Source: Escherichia coli
GTDB taxonomy: Bacteria > Pseudomonadota > Gammaproteobacteria > Enterobacterales > Enterobacteriaceae
Length of the DNA stretch: 64,000 nt
Assembly: GCF_016903815.1 (NCBI RefSeq)
Contig: NZ_CP069973.1
Strand: one strand, 5' to 3'
Below are positions 3,644 through 45,821 of this stretch, one piece after another. Position numbers and translations under genes: made by a program. The number at the start of each line of letters is the position of its first letter. The first letter of the stretch is position 1. A model generated the notes under the pieces. It saw nothing but the letters and a program-made list of their open reading frames with translations. It searched no databases and was not told the DNA's origin.

Positions 3644-5308
3644 ATGAGTGAGGCAGAAGCCCGCCCGACTAACTTTATTCGTCAGATCATCGATGAAGAT
3701 CTGGCCAGTGGTAAGCACACCACAGTACACACCCGTTTCCCGCCGGAGCCGAATGGCTATCTGCATATTGGCCATGCGAAATCTATCTGCCTGAACTTCG
3801 GGATCGCCCAGGACTATAAAGGCCAGTGCAACCTGCGTTTCGACGACACTAACCCGGTAAAAGAAGATATCGAGTATGTTGAGTCGATCAAAAACGACGT
3901 AGAGTGGTTAGGTTTTCACTGGTCTGGTAACGTCCGTTACTCCTCCGATTATTTTGATCAGCTCCACGCCTATGCGATCGAACTGATCAATAAAGGCCTG
4001 GCGTACGTTGATGAACTGACACCGGAACAGATCCGCGAATACCGCGGCACCCTGACGCAGCCGGGTAAAAACAGCCCGTACCGCGACCGCAGCGTTGAAG
4101 AGAACCTGGCGCTGTTCGAAAAAATGCGTACCGGTGGTTTTGAAGAAGGTAAAGCCTGCCTGCGTGCGAAAATCGACATGGCGTCGCCATTTATCGTAAT
4201 GCGCGATCCGGTGCTGTACCGCATTAAATTTGCTGAACACCACCAGACTGGCAACAAGTGGTGCATCTACCCGATGTACGACTTCACCCATTGCATCAGC
4301 GATGCGCTGGAAGGTATTACGCACTCTCTGTGTACGCTTGAGTTCCAGGACAACCGTCGCCTGTACGACTGGGTGCTGGACAACATCACCATTCCTGTTC
4401 ACCCGCGCCAGTACGAATTCTCGCGCCTGAATCTGGAATACACTGTGATGTCCAAGCGTAAGCTGAACCTGCTGGTGACCGACAAGCACGTTGAAGGCTG
4501 GGATGACCCGCGTATGCCGACCATTTCCGGTCTGCGTCGTCGTGGTTACACTGCGGCTTCTATTCGTGAGTTCTGCAAACGCATCGGTGTGACCAAGCAG
4601 GACAACACCATTGAGATGGCGTCACTGGAATCCTGCATCCGTGAAGATCTCAACGAAAATGCGCCGCGCGCAATGGCGGTTATCGATCCGGTGAAACTGG
4701 TTATCGAAAACTACCATGGCGAAGGCGAAATGGTCACCATGCCGAACCATCCGAACAAACCGGAAATGGGGAGCCGTCAGGTGCCGTTTAGCGGTGAGAT
4801 TTGGATCGATCGCGCCGATTTCCGCGAAGAAGCTAACAAGCAGTACAAACGTCTGGTGCTGGGTAAAGAAGTGCGTCTGCGTAATGCTTACGTCATTAAG
4901 GCTGAACGCGTGGAGAAAGATGCCGAAGGCAATATCACCACCATCTTCTGTACTTATGACGCCGACACCTTAAGCAAAGATCCGGCAGATGGTCGTAAAG
5001 TCAAAGGTGTTATTCACTGGGTGAGCGCGGCACATGCGCTGCCGGTTGAAATCCGCCTGTACGATCGTCTGTTCAGCGTGCCGAACCCAGGTGCTGCGGA
5101 TGATTTCCTGTCGGTGATTAACCCGGAATCGCTGGTGATCAAACAGGGCTTTGCTGAACCGTCTCTGAAAGACGCGGTTGCGGGTAAAGCATTCCAGTTT
5201 GAACGTGAAGGTTATTTCTGCCTCGACAGCCGCCATTCCACTGCCGAAAAACCGGTATTTAACCGCACCGTAGGGCTGCGTGATACCTGGGCGAAAGTAG
5301 GCGAGTAG
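3644..5308 (+). CDS. glnS: glutaminyl-tRNA synthetase
   Basis: 554 aa; class I HIGH motif (LHIGHAKS) and VMSKR (KMSKS-type) motif present in the translation. Confidence 0.95.
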
Positions 5309-10408: not shown

Positions 10409-10954
10409 ATGAAAACGATTGAAGTTGATGATGAACTCTACAGCTATATTGCCAGCCACACTAAGCATATCGGCGAGAGCGCATCCGACATTTTACGGCG
10501 TATGTTGAAATTTTCCGCCGCATCACAGCCTGCTGCTCCGGTGACGAAAGAGGTTCGCGTTGCGTCACCTGCTATCGTCGAAGCGAAGCCGGTCAAAACG
10601 ATTAAAGACAAGGTTCGCGCAATGCGTGAACTTCTGCTTTCGGATGAATACGCAGAGCAAAAGCGAGCGGTCAATCGCTTTATGCTGCTGTTGTCTACAC
10701 TATATTCTCTTGACGCCCAGGCGTTTGCCGAAGCAACGGAATCGTTGCACGGTCGTACACGCGTTTACTTTGCGGCAGATGAACAAACGCTGCTGAAAAA
10801 TGGTAATCAGACCAAGCCGAAACATGTGCCAGGCACGCCGTATTGGGTGATCACCAACACCAACACCGGCCGTAAATGCAGCATGATCGAACACATCATG
10901 CAGTCGATGCAATTCCCGGCGGAATTGATTGAGAAGGTTTGCGGAACTATCTAA
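10409..10954 (+). CDS. seqA: replication initiation negative regulator SeqA
   Basis: 181 aa [33 protein letters not shown]...; the ORF-track entry starts upstream at 10274. Confidence 0.95.
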
Positions 10955-12676: not shown

Positions 12677-13996
12677 TTAACCGTGTTTATTTTTCAGTTC
12701 AAAGCGTGGTGAGACCAGACCATACAGTGTCCAACCGAGGAAGGTCACGATGGAACCGTATAGCATGGCTTCTTCCCCGGATGAGTACAGCGCATAAAAG
12801 CTGTACATCGCGCCAACAAAAGCAACAAAGTTTGCAACTTTCGCTTTTGAGGGGGGCACATTAGCGACCTTCTGAATAATGACTAATGCCGCCATTGACA
12901 GAATATACGGAATGATATTGGTCACCACGGCCAGGTTAACCAGCACGTTGAACTGACTGTTTAGCGACGGGCTAATCGTCATCAGCGCCAACCCGCTCTG
13001 GATAATCACAATGGTCAACATTCCCTGCACCGGTGCATCCACTTTGGTTACACGGGAGAAAATTTTAGGGAAGTAGCCTTCATCAGATGAAGATTTAAAC
13101 ACCTGGGCAATGGTGAACTGCCAGCCAAGCAGCGAACCGCAGCAGGACATCACCATCAGCGCCATAATGACTTTACCCACTTCTGGCGTGAACATCTGTG
13201 CGAAGGCCAGGCCAAATGGTGCCGTTGAATTTGCCAGCTCCATATTAGGCACAATCCCTGCAATCACGTTGGTGGAGACGATATAAATCACCGCCGCACC
13301 TAACGTACCGCCGAGTACCGCGATTGGCACATTACGTTCCGGGTTTTCCACTACATCAGTATTCGCACACGCAGACTCCAGACCAAGAAAAGCCCACAGC
13401 GTCATAGCGATGGAAGAACCTACCGCACTGAAGAACGGTGCATGATGCGGATTCCAGGAATCAACGTAAAGCGTCGGGCTAAACCAGAACCAGCCGATAA
13501 CGCACAGGCCTACCACCGGAATAATGACCCCCCACACGGTAATGCTACTGATTTGCCCGGTAATGCGCGCACCACCAAAGTTAGCCACGGTACAAATCCA
13601 CAGCACCCCGATGGTCGCAAGACCAATCTGCACTGGCGACAAACTCGCGCCGAGCAGTTCGGTGCCGTAACCAACCGCCGAAATAGCAATCGCGACGTTA
13701 GCAATTAGCAGTGAGACGCCGTAGGTATAGTTCGCCATAAAGTTCCCGGATTTACCGAAAGCATACTCCGCATAACCGCCCATACCGCCTGATTTACGGC
13801 TGAACATACCGCATTTTGCGAATGCCCATGCCAGTGCCATTGAGCCTACGGCTGTCACCAGCCAGGAAATAATTGAGATTGTCCCGACTTCGGCAAGCTT
13901 TGTCGGCAGCATGATGATACCGGAGCCCATCATGTTGACCATCGTCAGTATGGTTAACTGAACGACGCCCATTTTGTTCGATTTAGCCTGACTCAT
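12677..13996 (-). CDS. potE: putrescine-ornithine antiporter
   Basis: 439 aa polytopic APC-family transporter; its start overlaps the speF stop (ATGA). Confidence 0.95.
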   Translation of the reverse strand: MSQAKSNKMGVVQLTILTMVNMMGSGIIMLPTKLAEVGTISIISWLVTAVGSMALAWAFAKCGMFSRKSGGMGGYAEYAFGKSGNFMANYTYGVSLLIANVAIAISAVGYGTELLGASLSPVQIGLATIGVLWICTVANFGGARITGQISSITVWGVIIPVVGLCVIGWFWFSPTLYVDSWNPHHAPFFSAVGSSIAMTLWAFLGLESACANTDVVENPERNVPIAVLGGTLGAAVIYIVSTNVIAGIVPNMELANSTAPFGLAFAQMFTPEVGKVIMALMVMSCCGSLLGWQFTIAQVFKSSSDEGYFPKIFSRVTKVDAPVQGMLTIVIIQSGLALMTISPSLNSQFNVLVNLAVVTNIIPYILSMAALVIIQKVANVPPSKAKVANFVAFVGAMYSFYALYSSGEEAMLYGSIVTFLGWTLYGLVSPRFELKNKHG

Positions 13997-16191
13997 AATT
14001 TTTCCCCTTTCAACAGGGTGCTTTGCGCATCACGAGGCTTGATGACATAGCACCAAACTTGCTTACGACCATCATGTTCTTCGATATAGACACCCTGCAG
14101 CTCCGGTGCAAAACCTGGCAGCAGGTTGATCCCTTCTTCCAGAGCGCTGAAGTAACGCAAAACAGCACCACCCCAGATTTCACCCGGAACAACACACAGC
14201 ACACCCGGAGGATAAGGAAGCGCACCTTCGGCAGCGATACGGCCTTCTGCATCCGGCAGACGAACCAGCTCCACTTCACCGCGTAAATAGGCGTAGTTAG
14301 CTTCTTGCGGATTCATGCTGACGCGTGGGAAGTGTTCCTTACGGAACATCTCTTTTTGCAGTTGTTTCACGTTGTGGCGGGCATACAAATCATGCATTTC
14401 CTGGCACAACTGACGAAGGGTATAACCGGCGTAGCGCTCTTCATGCTGTTTGTAGATGGAAGGTAGCACTTCCGCCAGCGGCGCATCAGATTCCAGCAGT
14501 TTTTCGAAGCGTACCAGCAGGGCAACAAGTTGCTGAAGTTTGGCCATATCCTCCGCCGGAGTCAGCAGGAAGAGGATGGAGTTAAGATCGCATTTTTCCG
14601 GCACTACGCCATTTTCGCGCAGGAAGTTAGCAAGAATCGTCGCGGGTACACCGAATGTTTCATATTCGCCGTTACGTGCATCAATACCTGGGGTTGTCAG
14701 CAACAGTTTGCAAGGATCGACAAAGTATTGATTCTCTGCATAGCCTTCAAAAGAATGCCAGTGTTCCCCTGGTACAAACTGGAAGAAGCGCAGATCAACC
14801 GCAATTTGCGCTGTTTCATACGACTGCCAGGGTTTACCATCCACCAGTTCAGGTACGAACGGACGAATATGCTGACAGTTATCGAGGATCAGTTTGCGGG
14901 CATTAATGCCATTTACCACACAATCCATCCACATATTACGACCGCTGACACCTTCATGCATTTTGGCGTTGATATCCAGTGCGGCAAACAGCGGATAGAA
15001 CGGGCTGGTGGAGGCGTGCATCATAAAGGCGTTGTTCATGCGTTTGTGCGGTACATAACGCTGTTGCCCTTTGATGTGGCTGTCTTTTTTATGGATTTGT
15101 GAAGTTTGAGAAAAACCAGCCTGCTGTTTATGTACGGATTGCGTAACCAGAATACCCGGATCGTTCTCATTAAGATCCAGCAACAGCGGCGAACAGTCAG
15201 CCATCATCGGGATAAATTGCTCATAGCCGACCCATGCGGAGTCAAACAGAATGTAGTCACACAGATGACCAATTTTATCCACCACCTGGCGGGCGTTATA
15301 AATCGTACCGTCGTAGGTGCCTAACTGAATCACAGCGAGGCGGAAAGGACGAGCCTCTTTTGCCCGCTGCGGTGCGACTTCCGCGATCAGCTCACGCAGG
15401 TAACTTTCTTCAAAACAATGCGCATCAATGCCACCGATAAAGCCATACGGGTTACGTGCCGTTTCCAGATAAACCGGTGTTGCACCAGCCTGTAGCAACG
15501 CTCCGTGGTGGTTAGATTTGTGGTTATTGCGATCAAACAGCACCAGATCACCCGGTGTTAGCAGGGCGTTTAAAACCACTTTGTTAGAAGATGAAGTGCC
15601 ATTTAGAACGAAGTATGTTTTATCGGCATTAAACACTTTTGCCGCATGTTGCTGTGCAATGCATGGCGCGCCTTCGTGAATCAGCAGATCGCCCATTGCC
15701 ACATCCGCGTTGCATAAGTCGGAACGGAACAGCGTTTCTCCGAAGTACTCCACGAACTGATTCCCTGCCGGATGACGACGGAAAAACTCACCTCCCTGAT
15801 GACCCGGGCAGTCAAAAGCGCTATTGCCCTGATTGACATAATCGACCAGTGCGCGGAAGAAGGGCGGGCGCAGTTGCGTTTCATAATGGCTAGCAGCGGT
15901 TTCTAACTGACGTCCATAAAACTCTTTCCGTGATTCGCAATGCTCGAAGACACCAGAAATACGTGGCAGATATTCTGCTGGTACACGTTCTTCATTTGCC
16001 GTTGCAATAAAAACAGGAATGCCATAGCCAGTAGCGTCTATTTCATCGAGTTTTCCACGTTCAACATCATTGACTGATAAAATAATGGCGGCAACGTCAA
16101 TATAATTACTTTCGTCAATATTCACGCATGCACGATGAGTGGAAAAACAATCCGGGCAAGAACGGCTAACGGCAATTTTTAATTCTGACAT
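13993..16191 (-). CDS. speF: inducible ornithine decarboxylase
   Basis: About 732 aa PLP-dependent decarboxylase (start MSELKIAVS...); an in-frame ATG three codons upstream (16200) is an alternative start. Confidence 0.92.
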   Translation of the reverse strand: MSELKIAVSRSCPDCFSTHRACVNIDESNYIDVAAIILSVNDVERGKLDEIDATGYGIPVFIATANEERVPAEYLPRISGVFEHCESRKEFYGRQLETAASHYETQLRPPFFRALVDYVNQGNSAFDCPGHQGGEFFRRHPAGNQFVEYFGETLFRSDLCNADVAMGDLLIHEGAPCIAQQHAAKVFNADKTYFVLNGTSSSNKVVLNALLTPGDLVLFDRNNHKSNHHGALLQAGATPVYLETARNPYGFIGGIDAHCFEESYLRELIAEVAPQRAKEARPFRLAVIQLGTYDGTIYNARQVVDKIGHLCDYILFDSAWVGYEQFIPMMADCSPLLLDLNENDPGILVTQSVHKQQAGFSQTSQIHKKDSHIKGQQRYVPHKRMNNAFMMHASTSPFYPLFAALDINAKMHEGVSGRNMWMDCVVNGINARKLILDNCQHIRPFVPELVDGKPWQSYETAQIAVDLRFFQFVPGEHWHSFEGYAENQYFVDPCKLLLTTPGIDARNGEYETFGVPATILANFLRENGVVPEKCDLNSILFLLTPAEDMAKLQQLVALLVRFEKLLESDAPLAEVLPSIYKQHEERYAGYTLRQLCQEMHDLYARHNVKQLQKEMFRKEHFPRVSMNPQEANYAYLRGEVELVRLPDAEGRIAAEGALPYPPGVLCVVPGEIWGGAVLRYFSALEEGINLLPGFAPELQGVYIEEHDGRKQVWCYVIKPRDAQSTLLKGEKL

Positions 16192-16500
16192 TTTGTTCAT
16201 CTCTTTATTTCAGGTAATAGCAGGTCCTCAATTTCTCAAAGGAGAAATTGATCACGCCGGAAAAAAGCAAAACCCCACCGCTGATAAATAAATCAGTAGT
16301 TTGCTTTTTGTAGATGCAATAACCCAGACCAGCCCGGTAACTGGCTATACTCGTCATACCTCAAGTTGCAAGTGCTGCGACTCGAATTATTTAGAGTTTA
16401 AAAGGGTTAGCAGTATATGAGCACCGAGGAATACAGGTATTAACCTGTAATGCTTAAAGTCAGGGAGACCTGTACGTTGGGGTGCCCTTTAGTCAGAAGA

Positions 16501-16605
16501 CTAGCGGGCATTAAAGAAATGAAAGTCAAAACTATTACGATGGGCAAACTTCATGATATGGGTTGTCCGCCTTATATGAGGCATTAAGCGGTTATTATTT
16601 TCCAT
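16501..16605 (-). CDS. speFL: speFL, ornithine-sensing ribosome-arrest leader peptide of the speF-potE operon
   Basis: Direct reverse-strand translation: MENNNRLMPHIRRTTHIMKFAHRNSFDFHFFNAR (34 aa), closely matching the leader peptide I recall (HIRRTTHIMKFAHRNSFDFHFFNAR core); about 300 nt upstream of speF. Absent from the ORF track because it is under 60 aa. Confidence 0.85.
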   Translation of the reverse strand: MENNNRLMPHIRRTTHIMKFAHRNSFDFHFFNAR

Positions 16606-16799
16606 TTACCTTTACCTCTTGCTGTGTCAGTTGAAGGTAGAGTTATTCTATCCATGAAATGGCTATAATCTGTGAAGAAGATCAACAAAAAACGATCATA
16701 CCCCAGATAATAAATCATTAATTATGAATATTGCCATATTAGATGCTGTTTTGTTACTTAAATGTTGTAATTTTGTGTTTTATATTTGCGTTAAGAAAT

Positions 16800-16836
16800 T
16801 AAACCTGCCAAATAATAATATTTGGAGCAGGTTTAA
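16800..16836 (-). terminator. imperfect hairpin downstream of kdpE
   Basis: aaacctgcc...ggagcaggttt inverted repeat in an AT-rich spacer. Confidence 0.35.
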
Positions 16837-16879
16837 TAATAAATTAATCACTATTAAAGCGAATTTATTGAATAACAAT

Positions 16880-17557
16880 TCAAAGCATAAACCGATACCC
16901 AATACCGGTTTCAGTAATGAAATGGCGGGGGCGAGCGGGATCCTGTTCCAGTTTTTGTCGCAGATGTCCCATATAAATACGCAAATAATGACTGTGTTCG
17001 ACCGCGTTTGGCCCCCACACCTGGTTAAGGAGCTGGCGCTGGGTGAGCACTTTTCCGGCATTGTTGAGCAGCACCGCCAGCAGGCGAAACTCAATTGGTG
17101 TGAGATGCACCTCTTCCTCACCGCGATGGATCACGCGGGCGGCTAAATCGACGGTAACATCGGAAAATTTCACCAGCGGATCGGGCGCAGCGGTGGCGGA
17201 GTGGCGACGTAAAGCGACGCGCAGACGGGCCTGCAATTCGCCAATGCCAAACGGCTTACTCAGGTAATCATCCGCTCCGGCATCCAGCGCGGCGATTTTG
17301 TCGCTCTCTTCGCTGCGTGCGGAAAGCACAATCACTGGCACTGCGCTCCACTGGCGCAGGTCGCGGATAAACTCAATCCCATCACCATCGGGCAGGCCGA
17401 GATCGAGAATAATCAAATCTGGCTTACGGGTAGCCGCTTCCAGCAAGCCGCGTTGCAGCGTTTCGGCCTCATAGACGCGCATCCCGTCGCCCTCCAGCGC
17501 CGTGCGCAGAAAGCGACGAATAGCCTGTTCATCTTCAACAATCAGAACGTTTGTCAC
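16880..17557 (-). CDS. kdpE: two-component response regulator KdpE (OmpR family)
   Basis: 225 aa; receiver domain (VEDEQ...DLGLPDGDG) plus winged-helix output domain. Confidence 0.95.
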   Translation of the reverse strand: MTNVLIVEDEQAIRRFLRTALEGDGMRVYEAETLQRGLLEAATRKPDLIILDLGLPDGDGIEFIRDLRQWSAVPVIVLSARSEESDKIAALDAGADDYLSKPFGIGELQARLRVALRRHSATAAPDPLVKFSDVTVDLAARVIHRGEEEVHLTPIEFRLLAVLLNNAGKVLTQRQLLNQVWGPNAVEHSHYLRIYMGHLRQKLEQDPARPRHFITETGIGYRFML

Positions 17558-28400: not shown

Positions 28401-29550
28401 GGCAAAACGGGTATGGCGGCGTGAACGGGACCTGACGGGCTGGATGTCGCTGTCATGGAAACCGGAAGTGCCCTGGTACGGCTGGGACGGCGACCGGCTG
28501 ACCACAATACAGAACGACAGAACCCGCATCCAGACGGTTTATCAGCCGGGGAGCTTCACGCCACTCATCAGAGTTGAAACTGCCACCGGTGAGCTGGCGA
28601 AAACGCAGCGCCGCAGCCTGGCGGATGCGCTTCAGCAGTCCGGCGGTGAAGACGGTGGCAGTGTGGTGTTCCCGCCGGTGCTGGTGCAGATGCTCGACCG
28701 GCTGGAAAGTGAAATCCTGGCTGACCGGGTGAGTGAGGAAAGCCGCCGCTGGCTGGCATCGTGCGGCCTGACGGTGGAGCAGATACAAAACCAGATGGAC
28801 CCGGTGTACACGCCGGCGCGAAAAATCCACCTGTACCACTGCGACCATCGCGGCCTGCCGCTGGCGCTTGTCAGCACGGAAGGGGCAACAGAATGGTGCG
28901 CAGAATACGATGAATGGGGCAACCTGCTGAATGAAGAGAACCCGCATCAGCTGCAGCAGCTCATCCGCCTGCCGGGTCAGCAGTATGATGAGGAGTCCGG
29001 CCTGTATTACAACCGCCACCGCTATTATGACCCGCTGAAGGGGCGGTATATCACTCAGGATCCGATTGGACTGAAGGGGGGATGGAATTTTTATCAGTAT
29101 CCGTTAAATCCGATCTCAGAGATAGACCCACAAGGGTTAAATCCGTTAATTCTTAGTGTTGTAGCACTGATGAGTTGCGGTTTGTTTTCATCAGGTGGTG
29201 TTATCCAAAGTGGGCAACAACGCAGAGATCAATATGGCCGTAAAGTTAATCCAGAAGCCGACAAATTAACAGATGAACATAAGTCAGGTGTAAATCCTGG
29301 TGGTAACTGTAGTCCCCAGAACCTGAGTGACTTACAAAATGAAAAAAACAGATTATGTAACCAGTCTAGAGCTTGCGCTCCTCAGATGCTGAGAAAAGAA
29401 ATATTGAGACGGTACGAGATAAATTTGGCGTGCGCTTCGGTCAGAAAGCAGATTAATAATCAGTGCTTTGGTGGTGGAGATAAGGCCCATATGGAAGAAG
29501 AGAATAAAGCATATAAAACAGCAGCTGATTGCAGTGGCTTAATAAAATGA
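25411..29550 (+). CDS. rhsC: Rhs-family polymorphic toxin: YD-repeat shell, PxxxxDPxGL core boundary, variable C-terminal tip
   Basis: 1379 aa; GC-rich YD/RHS repeat core with an N-terminal region close to K-12 RhsC as I recall it; core ends at ...[14 protein letters not shown] (about 29139), followed by a roughly 136 aa AT-rich tip. Confidence 0.9.
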
Positions 29551-30050
29551 AAAAAATAATTTTCTCTAACGAGAGTGCAGTCTATGATGAACTTATGATT
29601 CATTTCCCATGCCAGCCATTACCTCATATTTCAAATGATATTACAGGGCTGGAGGAACTGGATATTGTATATAATTTTTTCCAAAAGAAACAATGGAATG
29701 AAATAGCCAACAATTTTAAAATAAAGGATGACTCTTATGCTTTAGAGTTAGGAATTACATTCCTCCCTGAGAAAGTATTCTGCTATTACATCCCTCTGTA
29801 TATTTATGCCTCGTTGTTTAATAAGAATGATTTTTGGGTTTTTGAATCCGATTTTATTCAACAATATTTATGTCCTGAGTATCGGGATCACGATGATTTT
29901 TTGAATTTTGTTTTTAATTTTTCAGATATACAACTATCTATTATTGCACAGTTTATGTCTTATGAATCAGACGCTGGATTCTTTTATGCAAGTAAAGCTT
30001 GTATGGATTTTTGGGAAGATTATTCACCTCTATTACATAAGAAAATTTAA
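29547..30050 (+). CDS. putative cognate Rhs immunity protein
   Basis: 167 aa ORF ([20 protein letters not shown]...) whose ATG overlaps the rhsC stop (ATGA); AT-rich like the toxin tip; the position and coupling are typical of rhsI genes. An in-frame ATG at 29529 is an alternative start. Confidence 0.6.
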
Positions 30051-30102
30051 TCGTAAAAGGTATAAATGGTTTAATAAAAAACTTGTCTACTCGTTGGAGT
30101 AG

Positions 30103-30720
30103 ATGAAAAATAAGATGACGTTGGCATATAGATCACTGCGAATAATCCACCTCTACCACTGCGACTATCGCGGCCTGCCGCTGACGCTTATCAGCCCTGA
30201 CGGGGCAACAGAATGGTGCGCAGAATATGATGAATGGGGCAACCTGCTGACTGAAGAGAACCCGCAGCACCTGCAGCAGCTTATCCGTCTGCCGGGGCAG
30301 CAGTATGATGAGGAGTCCGGCCTGTATTACAACCGCCACCGCTATTATGACCCGCTGCAGGGGCGGTGTATCACTCAGGATCCGATTGGGCTGGAAGGCG
30401 GGTGGAATCAGTATGTATATGCTTCCATACATCCAACCTATTCTATTGATCCGCTGGGCTTAATTGATAAACCTGCTCCAGTATTCAATCGAGAACTAAA
30501 TTCAGATGCGTATTATCTTGCCGTAAATAATTGCTATTCATATGCTCTAAATAGGTATGGAAATCCTGGGAGTAGGATTTTTGGCGGCGGAGGATTACAA
30601 CCTGGAGAATTATCTGGAAAAGAGTTTTCTAAACTCACTTGTAGTAGTATTTTTGAAGCGTCAAAAAATGATGGTGCCAAGGACAGGGAAAGATCATCAG
30701 AAGTACACTTTTTGTACTAA
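30103..30720 (+). other. orphan Rhs C-terminal tip fragment (core-end homology plus an alternative toxin domain); lacks the Rhs core and a credible start of its own
   Basis: Translation ...[35 protein letters not shown]...[17 protein letters not shown]...IDPLGL then an unrelated 85 aa tail; nucleotides 30141-30408 are about 92% identical to rhsC 28821-29088 by eye. Confidence 0.8.
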
Positions 30721-30759
30721 ATAATTCGCATTTTATGTTTAAAAATTGAGATATTCCTC

Positions 30760-31700
30760 ATTACCTGAAGCTGTTTTTTATTGCTTATACATGATCAAAT
30801 ACTCCTTACATAATTAAGGAGAACAAAATGGAACTTAAAAAATTGATGGAACATATTTCTATTATCCCCGATTACAGACAAGCCTGGAAAGTGGAACATA
30901 AATTGTCGGATATTCTACTGTTGACTATTTGTGCCGTTATTTCTGGTGCAGAAGGCTGGGAAGATATAGAGGATTTTGGGGAAACACATCTCGATTTTTT
31001 GAAGCAATATGGTGATTTTGAAAATGGTATTCCTGTTCACGATACCATTGCCAGAGTTGTATCCTGTATCAGTCCTGCAAAATTTCACGAGTGCTTTATT
31101 AACTGGATGCGTGACTGCCATTCTTCAGATGATAAAGGCGTCATTGCAATTGATGGAAAAACGCTCCGGCACTCTTATGACTAGAGTCGCCGCAGGGGAG
31201 CGATTCATGTCATTAGTTCGTTCTCAACAATGCACAGTCTGGTCATCGGACAGATCAGGACGGATGAGAAATCCAATGAAATTACAGCTATCCCTGAACT
31301 TCTTAACATGTTGGATATTAAAGGAAAAATTATCACAACTGATGCGATGGGTTGCCAGAAAGATATCGCAGAGAAGATACAAAAACAGGGCGGTGATTAT
31401 TTATTCGCTGTAAAAGGAAACCAGGGGCGGCTAAATAAAGCCTTTGAGGAAAAGTTTCCGCTGAAAGAATTAAATAATCCAGAGCATGGCAGTTACGCAA
31501 TGAGTGAAAAGAGTCACGGCAGAGAAGAAATCCGTCTTCACATTGTTTGCGATGTCCCTGATGAACTTATTGATTTCACGTTTGAATGGAAAGGGCAGCC
31601 ATGGACAGAAACTACCTGACGTCAGTCCTTGCGGGGAGCGGGCTTTCGTAATCTTGCCCTGCTACAACAGGATTAACTTCACAAATATCATTTCCCAACG
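30760..31700 (+). mobile_element. H-repeat (ISAs1-family) element remnant, boundaries approximate
   Basis: Encodes an H-repeat-associated transposase-like protein ([57 protein letters not shown]...), as found beside Rhs elements in E. coli. Confidence 0.75.
30828..31619 (+). pseudogene. H-repeat-associated (ISAs1 family) transposase, disrupted
   Basis: Two same-frame ORFs (30828-31184 and 31230-31619) separated by an in-frame TAG at 31182-31184; the 3' part is shortened relative to full-length H-rpt proteins as I recall them, with the conserved C-terminal MDRNYL...SVLAGSGLS segment in a different frame after 31610. Confidence 0.75.
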
Positions 31701-44865: not shown

Positions 44866-45432
44866 TTATTTATAATCCAGTACGTAGGTCGCATTCGCCG
44901 TAACTGCGCCTGGTGTTACGGGCGTAGCCTGATCAATTTGTTCCATCCACGCAAAGAAATTTAACGTTTGTTCGCTGGAGGTTGGTGCCAGGTCGATATC
45001 TGGAGTAGCGGTGCCTAAAACGATATTGCTTTGATCTTTATTCATTAAACGCACGCCGACACCGGTCGCTTCACCCGTGCTGGTGTTGTTGAGAATCGGA
45101 TCTGCGCCGGTGGTTTTCGCTGAGCTGTCAAAGGTGACTGCAACTTTAGAAATCTTGCCGCCGGAACCGTTGTTGGAGTTTTCCAGATCGCAGTTGACTA
45201 AGCGCAGGTCGACAGCAACGGCATCGCTGTGATGCGACTGATTAATGTGGCTGGTGGTCACCTGACCGAGTTCAACCTCTTTATCAATATCATCCTGATG
45301 TATTTCACACGGTGCTTCAATAACTTCACCTTTAAAGTGAATTTCACCGGATCCTTCATCAGCCGCATAAACAGGTGCAGTGAACAGCAGAGATACGGCC
45401 AGTGCGGCCAATGTTTTTTGTCCTTTAAACAT
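44866..45432 (-). CDS. ybgD: fimbrial major subunit
   Basis: 188 aa from MFKGQKTLAALAVSLLFTAPVYA... (signal peptide), with SD aagga 8 nt upstream; first gene of the ybgDQPO cluster. Confidence 0.85.
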   Translation of the reverse strand: MFKGQKTLAALAVSLLFTAPVYAADEGSGEIHFKGEVIEAPCEIHQDDIDKEVELGQVTTSHINQSHHSDAVAVDLRLVNCDLENSNNGSGGKISKVAVTFDSSAKTTGADPILNNTSTGEATGVGVRLMNKDQSNIVLGTATPDIDLAPTSSEQTLNFFAWMEQIDQATPVTPGAVTANATYVLDYK

Positions 45433-45762
45433 AGCTGAGTCCTTTAAATAATGAGATAGAGTGTTGCGAGGCAAGAATATATTAACTGACAGTTGAATGT
45501 ATTTGGTTTTATTTAACAATATTAAAAAGCTTGTTATAGAAAGAATGGAATAATTGAGTGCATAAATTTATTGTTTAATGAGATGAAAGATGGGGTGGGA
45601 TGGATATGCATAATTTTCATTGGGTTAACAATGCTACCGGCAGGAAAGTATAAAAATAAACTTATCATTCTGCTCAGTATGTGACTTGTCACATTTTTTC
45701 ATCTTATTAATGGGTATTTGCATCTGGTTTAATTTTTACAATTTATTATGTTCAGCCATATA

Positions 45763-45800
45763 AAAAAGAACCCGCTCTATTAAAGGCGGGTCCGGAAAGT
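45763..45800 (-). terminator. gltA terminator
   Basis: Hairpin gaacccgc...gcgggtcc followed on the minus strand by a T-run. Confidence 0.6.
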
Positions 45801-45821
45801 AAACGGCTTAGCAATCAACCA

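Follow-up and report, generated by a model that had tools for sequence, protein, structure and literature searches.

The question raised by the DNA between speFL and kdpE of Escherichia coli is what so AT-rich a spacer is for. The window, meaning here the whole stretch of 64,000 nucleotides that was analysed, is 100% identical to DNA of E. coli strain 7/2 (NZ_CP023820), the RefSeq annotation of which was used. In it the spacer (16606-16879, 274 bp) has exact borders, the speFL start at 16605 (- strand) on the left and the kdpE stop at 16880 on the right (Table 1). In our view the spacer is likely to be non-coding and regulatory, a composite of the kdp terminator, an AT-rich stretch and the speFL-speF-potE promoter. 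As such it would be nothing out of the ordinary: an intergenic control region of a routine kind, most of it already known.

Table 1. Features in and around the speFL-kdpE spacer (window coordinates)
Feature	Position	Strand	Basis or remark
What is left of the K-12 ybfK frame (45 aa), antisense to speFL	16450..16587	+	no gene; ends before the spacer
speFL leader peptide gene, ornithine-sensing arrest peptide	16501..16605	-	left border of the spacer; ORF list, RefSeq, Pfam PF10940
44-aa ORF, RefSeq 'hypothetical protein' WP_001299172.1	16584..16718	-	judged no gene
speFL 5' UTR with Shine-Dalgarno GAGG/AAGG (about 16609-16620)	16606..16637	-	sequence and alignment
Predicted transcription start of speFL-speF-potE	16638	-	same alignment column as the primer-extension-mapped Salmonella start
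Conserved core-promoter block (about -62 to -4), including GATC sites 16680-16683 and 16694-16697 and a T6 tract	16642..16700	-	alignment
-10 hexamer TAGAAT	16645..16650	-	alignments; 5/6 match to TATAAT
Conserved dyad GTTGA-TCTTCT-TCACA, CRP/FNR-family-like candidate operator	16671..16686	-	sequence comparison
Most AT-rich core (20-28% GC), between terminator and core promoter	16700..16797		composition; upstream promoter region, candidate H-NS nucleation or UP-like DNA
kdpE 3' UTR hairpin, AUUAAACCUGC..GCAGGUUUAAU plus inner 6-bp stem, UUAU loop	16798..16837	-	RNA folding; candidate terminator
TCAATAAATT, near-match to the H-NS high-affinity motif	16862..16871	-	motif count; single site, weak alone
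kdpE (response regulator) CDS	16880..17557	-	stop codon 16880-16882 is the right border; ORF list and RefSeq annotation of strain 7/2

An earlier note on this DNA had called the spacer unusually AT-rich, and so it is, with a GC content of 27.4% against 51.7% for the whole window. Among 274-bp segments across the 64 kb (mean GC 51.7%, sd 6.45%) it lies some 3.8 sd low, only 0.09% being as poor in GC or poorer, and the window-wide minimum for such segments (26.6%) starts at 16631, within it. GC, taken in 50-bp steps, is 38% at 16600-16649, drops to 20-24% (16750-16849) and then rises abruptly to 56% at 16900; the spacer sits in an island of about 900 bp with GC of at most 45% (15900-16900). The present analysis established this composition, together with the layout of the parts, their conservation and the lack of any conserved ORF, all described below. 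An AT content of 72.6% over 274 bp lies above what marks H-NS-bound regions (more than about 65% AT over at least 200 bp), and TpA steps number 12 per 100 bp compared with 4.5 for the window. One element, TCAATAAATT, is a single mismatch from TCGATAAATT, reportedly the high-affinity motif of H-NS. Composition is shared widely: the corresponding spacers have 25.8-31.4% GC in K-12, E. albertii, Salmonella, C. braakii and Kluyvera, and 36.8% in Cronobacter, and the order kdpD-kdpE-speFL-speF-potE is common to the window, E. albertii, Salmonella, C. braakii, Kluyvera, Cronobacter and Superficieibacter. (Outgroup loci were found via SpeF homologues and exact-protein look-ups.) An Rfam search at a permissive threshold gave no match inside the spacer; two sub-threshold matches, to isrH (17 bits) and to a eukaryotic lncRNA model, fall in the speF leader only.

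At the kdpE end, the earlier note had placed the 3' end of the gene inside the spacer. Its coding end is just outside, but its 3' UTR, with a pronounced hairpin, is inside. The hairpin begins 43 nt past the kdpE stop and has a GC core, CCUGC/GCAGG, with a folding energy of -17.3 kcal/mol (z -5.64; none of 200 shuffles equalled it); a stable stem-loop of this kind near a stop codon is what characterizes intrinsic terminators. After the GC core comes UUUAAUUUCUU, which has U in 8 of 11 positions in an interrupted tract, and a scan for consensus terminators did not call the hairpin. Hairpins of different sequence occupy the same place in other alleles and taxa. In the SaT040-type allele, K-12 and Salmonella they reach -17.4, -11.7 and -17.2 kcal/mol, respectively, with 0 of 200 shuffles as good in each case; the equivalents in C. 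braakii (-13.3; 1/200) and E. albertii (-12.0; 3/200) are also clear, and that of Kluyvera is weak (-6.8, z -1.5). In a K-12 Term-seq data set no 3' end is reported near 7209xx, though in the media of that study the kdp operon was presumably hardly expressed. As judged from folding, the hairpin probably acts as intrinsic terminator for kdpFABCDE transcription and insulates the speFL promoter that follows.

Between hairpin and core promoter lies the most AT-rich DNA, and here 12 of the 24 differences between the window-type (W1) and SaT040-type (W3) alleles fall. Its conservation across genera is patchy and it is not alignable to K-12, i.e. the sequence turns over fast while composition is retained. 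The adjoining core-promoter block is of a different character. It accounts for none of the 24 differences, all of which are in the remainder of the 274 bp (probability about 0.005 if differences were spread evenly), and it is conserved across eight sequences from six genera.

That the spacer holds the speF operon promoter, as the earlier note had it, is borne out by this block: its -10 and the predicted start align to the start mapped in Salmonella. There, in strain SL1344, the speF start was determined by primer extension, with the AUG of orf34 at +32 (Ben-Zvi et al. 2019, PMC6386406). The -10 is TA[G/A]AAT in all Enterobacteriaceae compared, and its Salmonella counterpart in the alignment precedes the mapped start by 6 nt, so that the hexamer is both near TATAAT and at the 6-8 nt from the start usual for sigma-70. 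No -35 near TTGACA is present at 16-18 bp, the closest hexamer being TTCACA, 20 bp from the -10, and a promoter scan of the - strand found no sigma-70 consensus promoter. The start site, and promoter activity, would be expected to carry over from Salmonella to the window's allele by analogy. In K-12, an in vitro site for RNA polymerase with sigma-S at 720060 (U00096.2) is 14 nt off the predicted start, and sigma-70 ChIP-seq of anaerobic cultures in glucose minimal medium gave no peak at the predicted promoter (Myers et al. 2013). The gene served, speFL, is secure: a 34-aa ORF (MENNNRLMPHIRRTTHIMKFAHRNSFDFHFFNAR), 309 nt upstream of speF, with an HIRRxxH sensor and an FDFHFFNAR-type effector motif, a Pfam PF10940 score of 27.9 bits (cutoff 25) and 32 of 34 residues matching K-12 SpeFL.

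With the -35 missing, attention is drawn to the dyad upstream of the -10. Its left half is of the FNR type (TTGAT) and its right half of the CRP type (TCACA), and its centre is near -40.5 from the predicted start, 1 bp from the canonical -41.5 of class II activation and over the -35 position. One possible, though doubtful, reading is that the promoter is of this activator-dependent class, a CRP/FNR-family protein on the dyad substituting for the absent -35, which would tie speF-potE to carbon or oxygen status, and that the left half-site changed from GTGA (CRP) to TTGA (FNR) in Escherichia, Salmonella, Citrobacter, Kluyvera and Cronobacter. The dyad is exactly 20 nt from the -10 in 12 of 12 sequences from ten genera, including loci in which the cassette is away from kdpE, and the combination of dyad, 20 nt and TAnnnT occurs once in the 64-kb window. 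A full CRP core, GTGA-N6-TCAC, is found in four distant taxa (Hafnia, Edwardsiella, Superficieibacter and a 'Mixta'-labelled locus) where other upstream DNA is unalignable. The absence of a sigma-70 peak in glucose medium would suit dependence on CRP, and ornithine aids growth of Salmonella at pH 4.5 under anoxic conditions only. However, while the right half-site matches the CRP consensus in 5/5 positions, the left does so in 3/5, and the two mismatches to the FNR consensus are at chance level, with 40 such matches in the window against 31 expected. Regulator binding, which class II activation entails, is not seen at the K-12 allele in published FNR ChIP or CRP SELEX: the locus has no FNR ChIP peak, predicted site or delta-hns/delta-stpA peak (Myers et al. 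2013 supplements), no ArcA peak, and no CRP SELEX peak in the spacer. Nor did a literature search turn up a paper connecting CRP or FNR with speF; a 2017 study reporting weak NtrC binding to speF/potE in K-12 presents this as the first direct regulatory link for the operon. Three specific candidates were set aside, namely FNR as the dyad-binding protein, given the Myers 2013 supplements and the chance-level consensus match, ArcA as a regulator, given the lack of a K-12 peak, and the CRP SELEX target assigned to kdpE as a spacer site, since its position is inside kdpD.

A different emphasis is that of the earlier note, which proposed an H-NS-silenced promoter. In its strong form the promoter would be essentially off under H-NS, with induction by acid and ornithine mainly due to relief of silencing. 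Occupancy stands, by K-12 ChIP-chip: bound regions extend over 718659-720811 in aerobic and 718920-720827 in anaerobic cells (U00096.2; Myers et al. 2013, Table S3), running from the 5' third of speF through the leader, speFL and the entire spacer and across most of kdpE, and such occupancy presumably extends to the window's allele. The AT content, TpA density and single near-consensus motif given above are in keeping with it, as are the missing sigma-70 peak in glucose minimal medium and the finding that K-12 Orn-system genes are uninduced aerobically at pH 5.8 or 4.4. 'Silenced' goes too far, since the promoter fires both in Salmonella fusions and, on Rho inhibition, in K-12. Salmonella PspeF fusions are active in LB and insensitive to ornithine or arginine (PMC6386406). 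Loss of orf34 translation there reduces speF-lacZ about 100-fold and bicyclomycin partly restores it (PMC6386406), and so the main block is after initiation. In K-12, inhibition of Rho by itself, for 15 min, takes the reads over the 800 nt that follow a point within the spacer from 28 to 312 (11-fold), with upstream reads staying level (66 before, 63 after; Adams et al. 2021, supplementary file 2); a Rho score of 11.7 is assigned to 720967(-), inside the spacer (Adams et al. 2021). A similar Rho effect would be anticipated for the window's allele. With a promoter that is active and blind to ornithine, and downstream reads that rise when Rho is inhibited, the known switch, ornithine-dependent ribosome arrest on SpeFL versus Rho termination (10.1101/604074, PMC6386406), is therefore downstream of the spacer. 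Further, speF is absent from the Myers 2013 supplementary tables, including the delta-hns/delta-stpA lists. Induction chiefly by relief of H-NS silencing thus seems unlikely to us, if by no means far-fetched.

Wet-lab results on the operon all come from K-12 or Salmonella, and work on SpeFL, H-NS ChIP, Rho and SELEX was done with the K-12 reference allele, for which a comparison of alleles is pertinent. The K-12 spacer (b4803-b0694) is 233 bp rather than 274 bp; its distal ~170 bp or so cannot be aligned to the window's, and the proximal part is 75-80% identical. Divergence is not limited to the spacer. A hyperdivergent block of 1.24 kb (15640-16876), which ends exactly at the kdpE stop, takes in the spacer, speFL, the leader (with a 51-bp deletion in K-12) and the SpeF N-terminal domain, and in it K-12 is further from the window strain than E. 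albertii is. Among 5426 E. coli genomes, 3335 (61%) have the window type and 1704 the K-12 type, and speFL is absent from 383 (7%); identity to a query of speFL plus promoter is strictly bimodal in these genomes, with no third spacer allele. A search of contigs with a degenerate speFL DNA pattern gave one match, on a contig of a Collinsella MAG; it has the K-12 allele without a difference and is evidently E. coli contamination.

Such divergence invites the thought that horizontal transfer or recombination left the AT-richness behind as a scar, with the spacer simply joining kdp to a mobile speFL-speF-potE cassette and its composition reflecting foreign origin instead of function. In Hafnia, Edwardsiella and the 'Mixta'-labelled locus the cassette does have unrelated surroundings; the stop of the divergent block precisely at the kdpE stop, a 145-bp copy of the kdpE 3' end (ybfI) beyond potE in K-12, an IS1 insertion and a deletion in the region, and the genomes lacking speFL all point the same way. 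(Generation of cassette-less strains by kdpE/ybfI recombination was considered and dropped, as identity is ambiguous, 91% to kdpE and 89% to ybfI.) Yet the kdpE-speFL junction is common to at least six genera and is therefore old, and GC is kept at 26-31% despite turnover of the sequence, which suggests constraint on composition. Also, the 'Mixta'-labelled locus has 47% GC upstream, and so AT-richness does not travel with the cassette. As a full explanation of the composition, a scar is improbable; as part of the history of the locus, it is complementary to the composite regulatory spacer that we favor.

Small ORFs annotated over the promoter remain to be accounted for. PGAP calls the 44-aa ORF in all inspected genomes with the window's allele, and the five nucleotide differences within it between the window-type and SaT040-type alleles cause only two amino-acid changes. 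Its start, however, is upstream of the promoter, and dyad, -10 and transcription start all fall within the frame; speFL mRNA therefore cannot encode it. Alignment revealed no intact conserved small ORF, the 44-aa frame being broken in K-12, Salmonella, Kluyvera and Cronobacter and without a start codon in C. braakii, and such conservation of the peptide as there is coincides with conserved promoter DNA. Product names contradict each other, the ORF being labelled 'TonB-dependent receptor' in strain SF-173, and neither it nor the ybfK remnant has a Pfam or NCBIfam match. The earlier note's placing of ybfK here was correct as to its former existence in K-12 annotation but slightly off as to position, for the 85-aa K-12 ORF (+ strand) is antisense to speFL and extends just 18 nt into the spacer. 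It was formerly listed as affecting fitness, but 'ybfK' insertions would hit speFL too; it is absent from the current NC_000913.3 annotation and truncated in the window. With neither frame both intact and conserved, the same note's failure to find a convincing small ORF is upheld, and that the spacer codes for a small protein, whether the 'hypothetical protein' or a ybfK-like product, can be all but discarded: the ybfK, 44-aa 'hypothetical protein' and 'TonB-dependent receptor' labels are artefacts over a promoter.

For the composite regulatory spacer, the parts can be put together as follows. Read on the - strand, the first ~90 nt after the kdpE stop would be the kdp 3' UTR, with its strong hairpin and U-rich tail, which most likely ends kdpFABCDE transcription and keeps read-through from reaching the next promoter. 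The next ~100 nt, at 20-28% GC, is the sequence type coated by H-NS, as seen on the K-12 allele, and H-NS there probably dampens the speFL promoter as well as spurious or antisense initiation. The last ~100 nt would then be promoter and 5' UTR, with the dyad at about -40.5, TAGAAT, no -35 and a start near 16638, from which a 33-nt 5' UTR with its Shine-Dalgarno leads to the speFL AUG at 16605. Initiation would be at a modest level and expression of speF-potE decided downstream, where ornithine-dependent stalling of ribosomes on SpeFL blocks Rho.

The practical yield is threefold. Annotation noise (ybfK, the 44-aa ORF, the TonB label) is cleared; a candidate, testable operator is provided for an ornithine-dependent acid-resistance operon still without an established transcription factor; and the K-12 version of the region is recognized as an atypical, highly diverged allele, which matters for extrapolation to commensal and pathogenic E. 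coli. Since K-12 carries a foreign-like 1.24-kb allele, regulatory results obtained with it may not transfer to the 61% of genomes with the window's allele. It is a tentative suggestion only that the dyad is the operator of a CRP/FNR-family activator undescribed for this operon, coupled with a half-site switch in Escherichia, Salmonella and Citrobacter and with the foreign-like K-12 allele.

Salmonella Typhimurium orf34(speFL)-speF (PMC6386406) has the same gene order as the window, a -10 of TAAAAT where TAGAAT is present here, and the dyad GTTGA-N6-TCACA, likewise 20 nt from the -10. The 5' UTRs are 31 and 33 nt, and the spacers 277 bp with 28% GC and 274 bp with 27% GC, in Salmonella and the window respectively, but little of the distal half can be aligned, and the sequence of the terminator hairpin is different. 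Regulation also differs: speF of E. coli K-12 is repressed about fivefold by OmpR, and that of Salmonella is not. The K-12 spacer retains the flanking genes, the -10, the right half of the dyad and the layout of hairpin, AT-rich stretch and promoter; unlike the window's, its left half-site is ATTGA, and its hairpin has its own sequence, AAAGCCGUA..UACGGCUUU, then UUUUAUCUU, with a U-tract UUUUUAUCUU.

Class II CRP- or FNR-dependent promoters are exemplified by galP1, and by yfiD with FNR at -40.5. Shared with these are a dyad of the TGTGA-N6-TCACA or TTGAT-N4-ATCAA type over the -35 position, the lack of a -35 and a good -10; in contrast, E. coli has mixed, imperfect half-sites, the centre lies at -40.5 and not -41.5, and the published K-12 FNR ChIP and CRP SELEX show no binding. 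H-NS-bound AT-rich promoters are known at other acid-resistance loci, cadBA, gad and adiY. In common with those, the spacer provides an AT-rich intergenic promoter for an inducible amino-acid decarboxylase/antiporter operon and is occupied by H-NS in K-12. It differs in that no derepression of speF in hns mutants was found in the literature consulted and in that the dominant known control is the leader-peptide/Rho attenuator.

With a GC content of 27.4%, against 51.7% for the whole 64-kb window, the spacer at 16606-16879 lies ~3.8 sd under the 274-bp window mean, a GC as low being reached by just 0.09% of such windows; the lowest of all (26.6%) begins inside it at 16631, bearing out the strong AT-richness claimed in an earlier note. 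Local GC is 20-24% at 16750-16849, then leaps to 56% at 16900. The flanking genes, speFL (a 34-aa leader peptide gene, orf34 in Salmonella) and kdpE, are as that note stated, both on the minus strand; of the kdpE 3′ end that it placed in the interval, the 3′ UTR is inside but the end of the coding sequence is just outside. The equivalent spacer has 26-31% GC in K-12, E. albertii, Salmonella, C. braakii and Kluyvera, and 37% in Cronobacter. Comparable 274-bp windows (GC 27-30%) also occur at about 29450-30180, 30569-31000 and 45386-45810. E. coli strain 7/2 is identical to the window across the 801 bp tested.

Features of the speF-kdpE region (window coordinates unless marked U00096.2)
Feature	Coordinates	Strand	Remark
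potE	12677-13996	-	
speF	13993-16191	-	
ybfK frame remnant	16450-16587	+	45 aa
speFL	16501-16605	-	product passes Pfam PF10940
44-aa ORF	16584-16718	-	RefSeq "hypothetical protein", annotated in genomes carrying the window allele
speFL core promoter and 5′ UTR	16606-16700	-	
Predicted transcription start	about 16638	-	alignment to Salmonella mapped start
-10 TAGAAT	16645-16650	-	alignment to Salmonella
Dyad GTTGA-TCTTCT-TCACA	16671-16686	-	exactly 20 nt upstream of -10
Most AT-rich part of spacer	16700-16797		sequence least conserved, composition kept
40-nt hairpin, kdpE 3′ UTR	16798-16837	-	-17.3 kcal/mol
kdpE	16880-17557	-	
kdpD	from 17554	-	
K-12 speF	717483-719681 (U00096.2)		
K-12 speFL	719939-720043 (U00096.2)		
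K-12 spacer	720044-720276 (U00096.2)		
K-12 kdpE	720277-720954 (U00096.2)		

The composition had also suggested an H-NS-silenced promoter; H-NS occupancy is supported in K-12, but 'silenced' is too strong a word. In K-12, the H-NS ChIP-chip regions of Myers et al. 2013 (Table S3; U00096.2 coordinates), 718659-720811 in aerobic and 718920-720827 in anaerobic cultures, cover the entire spacer and its flanks when set against the gene positions; U00096.2 positions are NC_000913.3 positions minus 779, an offset that agrees with the positions in the sigma-S binding and Rho data. Occupancy is further supported in that K-12 in anaerobic glucose medium has no sigma-70 peak where the promoter is predicted, the nearest being at 718350 and 720574 (Myers et al. 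2013). Other data speak against simple silencing. Salmonella PspeF fusions show activity in LB and no response to ornithine or arginine, and abolishing orf34 translation lowers speF-lacZ ~100-fold, which bicyclomycin partly restores (PMC6386406). Likewise, the strongest regional Rho effect in K-12, at 720967(-) (NC_000913.3; score 11.7), lies between the hairpin and the promoter, bicyclomycin changing reads in the 800 nt upstream from 66 to 63 and those downstream from 28 to 312 (Adams et al. 2021), and RNA polymerase carrying only sigma-S binds in vitro at 720060 (U00096.2), 14 nt away from where the K-12 start is predicted. The switch that is established is the stalling of ribosomes on SpeFL in the presence of ornithine, by which a Rho-binding (rut) site is masked (10.1101/604074). 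OmpR represses speF about fivefold in K-12, and weak NtrC binding in a 2017 ChIP study was called the first direct regulatory link for the speF operon. A further Rho-dependent termination region, at K-12 720082 (+) (NC_000913.3; score 3.9; roughly window ~15800), is antisense to the 5′ part of speF (Adams et al. 2021) and fits spurious antisense transcription in an H-NS-covered AT-rich island.

The sole start found by primer extension in Salmonella puts the orf34 AUG at +32 (PMC6386406); when aligned, it falls 6 nt past a TA[G/A]AAT hexamer whose position is invariant, and gives the window's speFL a 33-nt 5′ UTR with a GAGG/AAGG Shine-Dalgarno sequence. The speFL promoter has no -35, and a promoter scan of the minus strand gave no match. 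What is kept upstream is a dyad: the arrangement N[G/T]TGA-N6-TCACN, 20 nt, TAnnnT is present in 12/12 sequences compared (10 genera), and the window has a single copy of this composite pattern. The two half-sites are of different types in Escherichia, Salmonella, Citrobacter, Kluyvera and Cronobacter: the left one is FNR-type, TTGAT, and the right one remains CRP-type, TCACA. Superficieibacter, a 'Mixta'-labelled locus, Hafnia and Edwardsiella have the full CRP-type core GTGA-N6-TCAC, the last three with the cassette (speFL-speF-potE) away from kdpE and the surrounding DNA unalignable. Between the window and the SaT040-type allele, 24 of the 274 spacer positions differ, none within 16642-16700 (chance ~0.005 if evenly spread, by our own calculation). 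Counted from a start at 16638, the dyad has its centre at -40.5, as in class II CRP/FNR-family promoters, where it would take the place of a -35. The dyad is well supported as a conserved element and is a candidate operator. Its agreement with the FNR consensus (2 mismatches) does not exceed chance, the FNR ChIP, predicted-site and delta-hns/delta-stpA tables of Myers 2013 and the ArcA tables have no entry for the speF locus, and no CRP or FNR link to speF was found in the literature. A CRP SELEX target listed as "kdpE" was rejected as evidence for the dyad, being at 723360, inside kdpD. A pair of GATC (Dam) sites with a distance of 14 bp (16680-16683 and 16694-16697), flanking a T6 tract, lie immediately upstream of the dyad and overlap it; both are kept in most Enterobacteriaceae compared, the upstream one being absent in Cronobacter and AATC in E. 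albertii.

Could conservation here instead reflect a peptide? Beginning upstream of the promoter, the 44-aa ORF takes in the dyad, -10 and transcription start; its frame is broken or lacks a start codon in K-12, Salmonella, C. braakii, Kluyvera and Cronobacter, and a family search gave no match. It was rejected as a gene, its conservation being simply that of promoter DNA read as codons. The same ORF is 'TonB-dependent receptor' in strain SF-173 (L023 1584-1718 = window 16584-16718) and 'hypothetical protein' in thousands of other RefSeq genomes; the label is a propagated annotation artefact. As for ybfK, named by the earlier note as a K-12 ORF here, the 85-aa plus-strand frame (L003, a K-12 locus, 4584-4841) does touch the spacer but ends just 18 nt into it, is antisense to speFL and is no longer annotated in NC_000913.3. 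With that frame cut to 45 aa in the window and the 44-aa frame broken in other taxa, the note's failure to identify a convincing small ORF was justified.

Distal to the promoter, the kdpE 3′ hairpin (z = -5.64; 0/200 shuffles equally stable) has a GC core followed by UUUAAUUUCUU. Hairpins differing in sequence stand at the equivalent place in the other alleles and species examined: -17.4 kcal/mol in the W3 (SaT040-type) allele, -11.7 in K-12 (followed by UUUUUAUCUU), -17.2 in Salmonella, -13.3 in C. braakii and -12.0 in E. albertii, all with shuffling support (0-3/200 equally good), that of Kluyvera being weak (-6.8, z -1.5). Retention of structure despite replaced sequence is as expected of a terminator, and the hairpin is predicted to be a candidate terminator after kdpE; a consensus terminator scan made no call for it.

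Alignment to the K-12 spacer, proposed earlier as a check, succeeds for the proximal ~95 nt (75-80% identical) but not for the distal ~170 nt, which are unalignable. The spacer is part of a 1.24-kb divergent block (15640-16876; identity 37-92% per 100 columns, flanks 94-100%) that takes in the 5′ ~550 nt of speF, the leader and speFL, with its right edge at the kdpE stop; potE, kdpE and speF beyond its first 600 nt are 97-98% identical to K-12. Over the first 600 nt of speF the window is closer to E. albertii (88.5% DNA identity) than to K-12 (85.0%), K-12 and E. albertii being at 82.3%, so the K-12 allele is the outlier. Window/K-12 differences there fall 19/6/65 by codon position, the first 200 SpeF residues carrying 20 amino-acid changes and the other 532 carrying 2, from which both alleles look functional and old. 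Identity to speFL with its core promoter, taken over 5426 complete E. coli genomes, has a strictly bimodal distribution: 3335 are at 95% or above (window type), 1704 at 80-90% (K-12 type) and none at 90-95%, with 383 lacking a match. A 51-bp leader segment between speFL and speF (16353-16403), with a small hairpin and a weak isrH-like Rfam match, is missing in K-12; the leader lengths (309 nt in the window, 307 in E. albertii, 257 in K-12) indicate that K-12 probably carries a deletion in the attenuation-mediating RNA. Window and SaT040 differ by ~5-13% per 100 bp (roughly 9-10% average) in blocks 15106-15805 and 16706-17105 and by 0-4% in between, a mosaic that suggests repeated recombination across kdpE-speF among window-type alleles.

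The wider setting of the cassette also varies. Downstream of potE in K-12, pseudogene ybfI (L010, a K-12 locus, 10721-10865) is an 89.7% copy of the final 145 bp of kdpE, matching window 16879-17023, so that the K-12 cassette is bracketed by kdpE 3′-end repeats; ybfP-ybfG-ybfI (L010 9243-10907) is missing from the window. Some E. coli lack speFL-speF-potE, e.g. LAM_HS, with IS1A in the spacer and just 112 bp of distal spacer remaining beside kdpE, and GDSC2227PM, with the order pgm, REP-like repeats, kdpE. Cassette neighbourhoods are unrelated in Hafnia, Edwardsiella and the 'Mixta'-labelled locus, and in Pseudescherichia vulneris speF adjoins kdpE without speFL or potE.

The spacer is of a kind already known, a probable terminator and then an AT-rich promoter, H-NS-covered in K-12, feeding a leader-peptide/Rho attenuator. 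Only the conserved dyad and the atypical K-12 allele appear to be undescribed, and these are leads rather than demonstrated functions. Closest among described systems are the Salmonella orf34-speF promoter and leader, which share the spacer architecture though the window's distal sequence differs, and the K-12 speFL-kdpE spacer, again alike in architecture, from which the window differs over most of the sequence.
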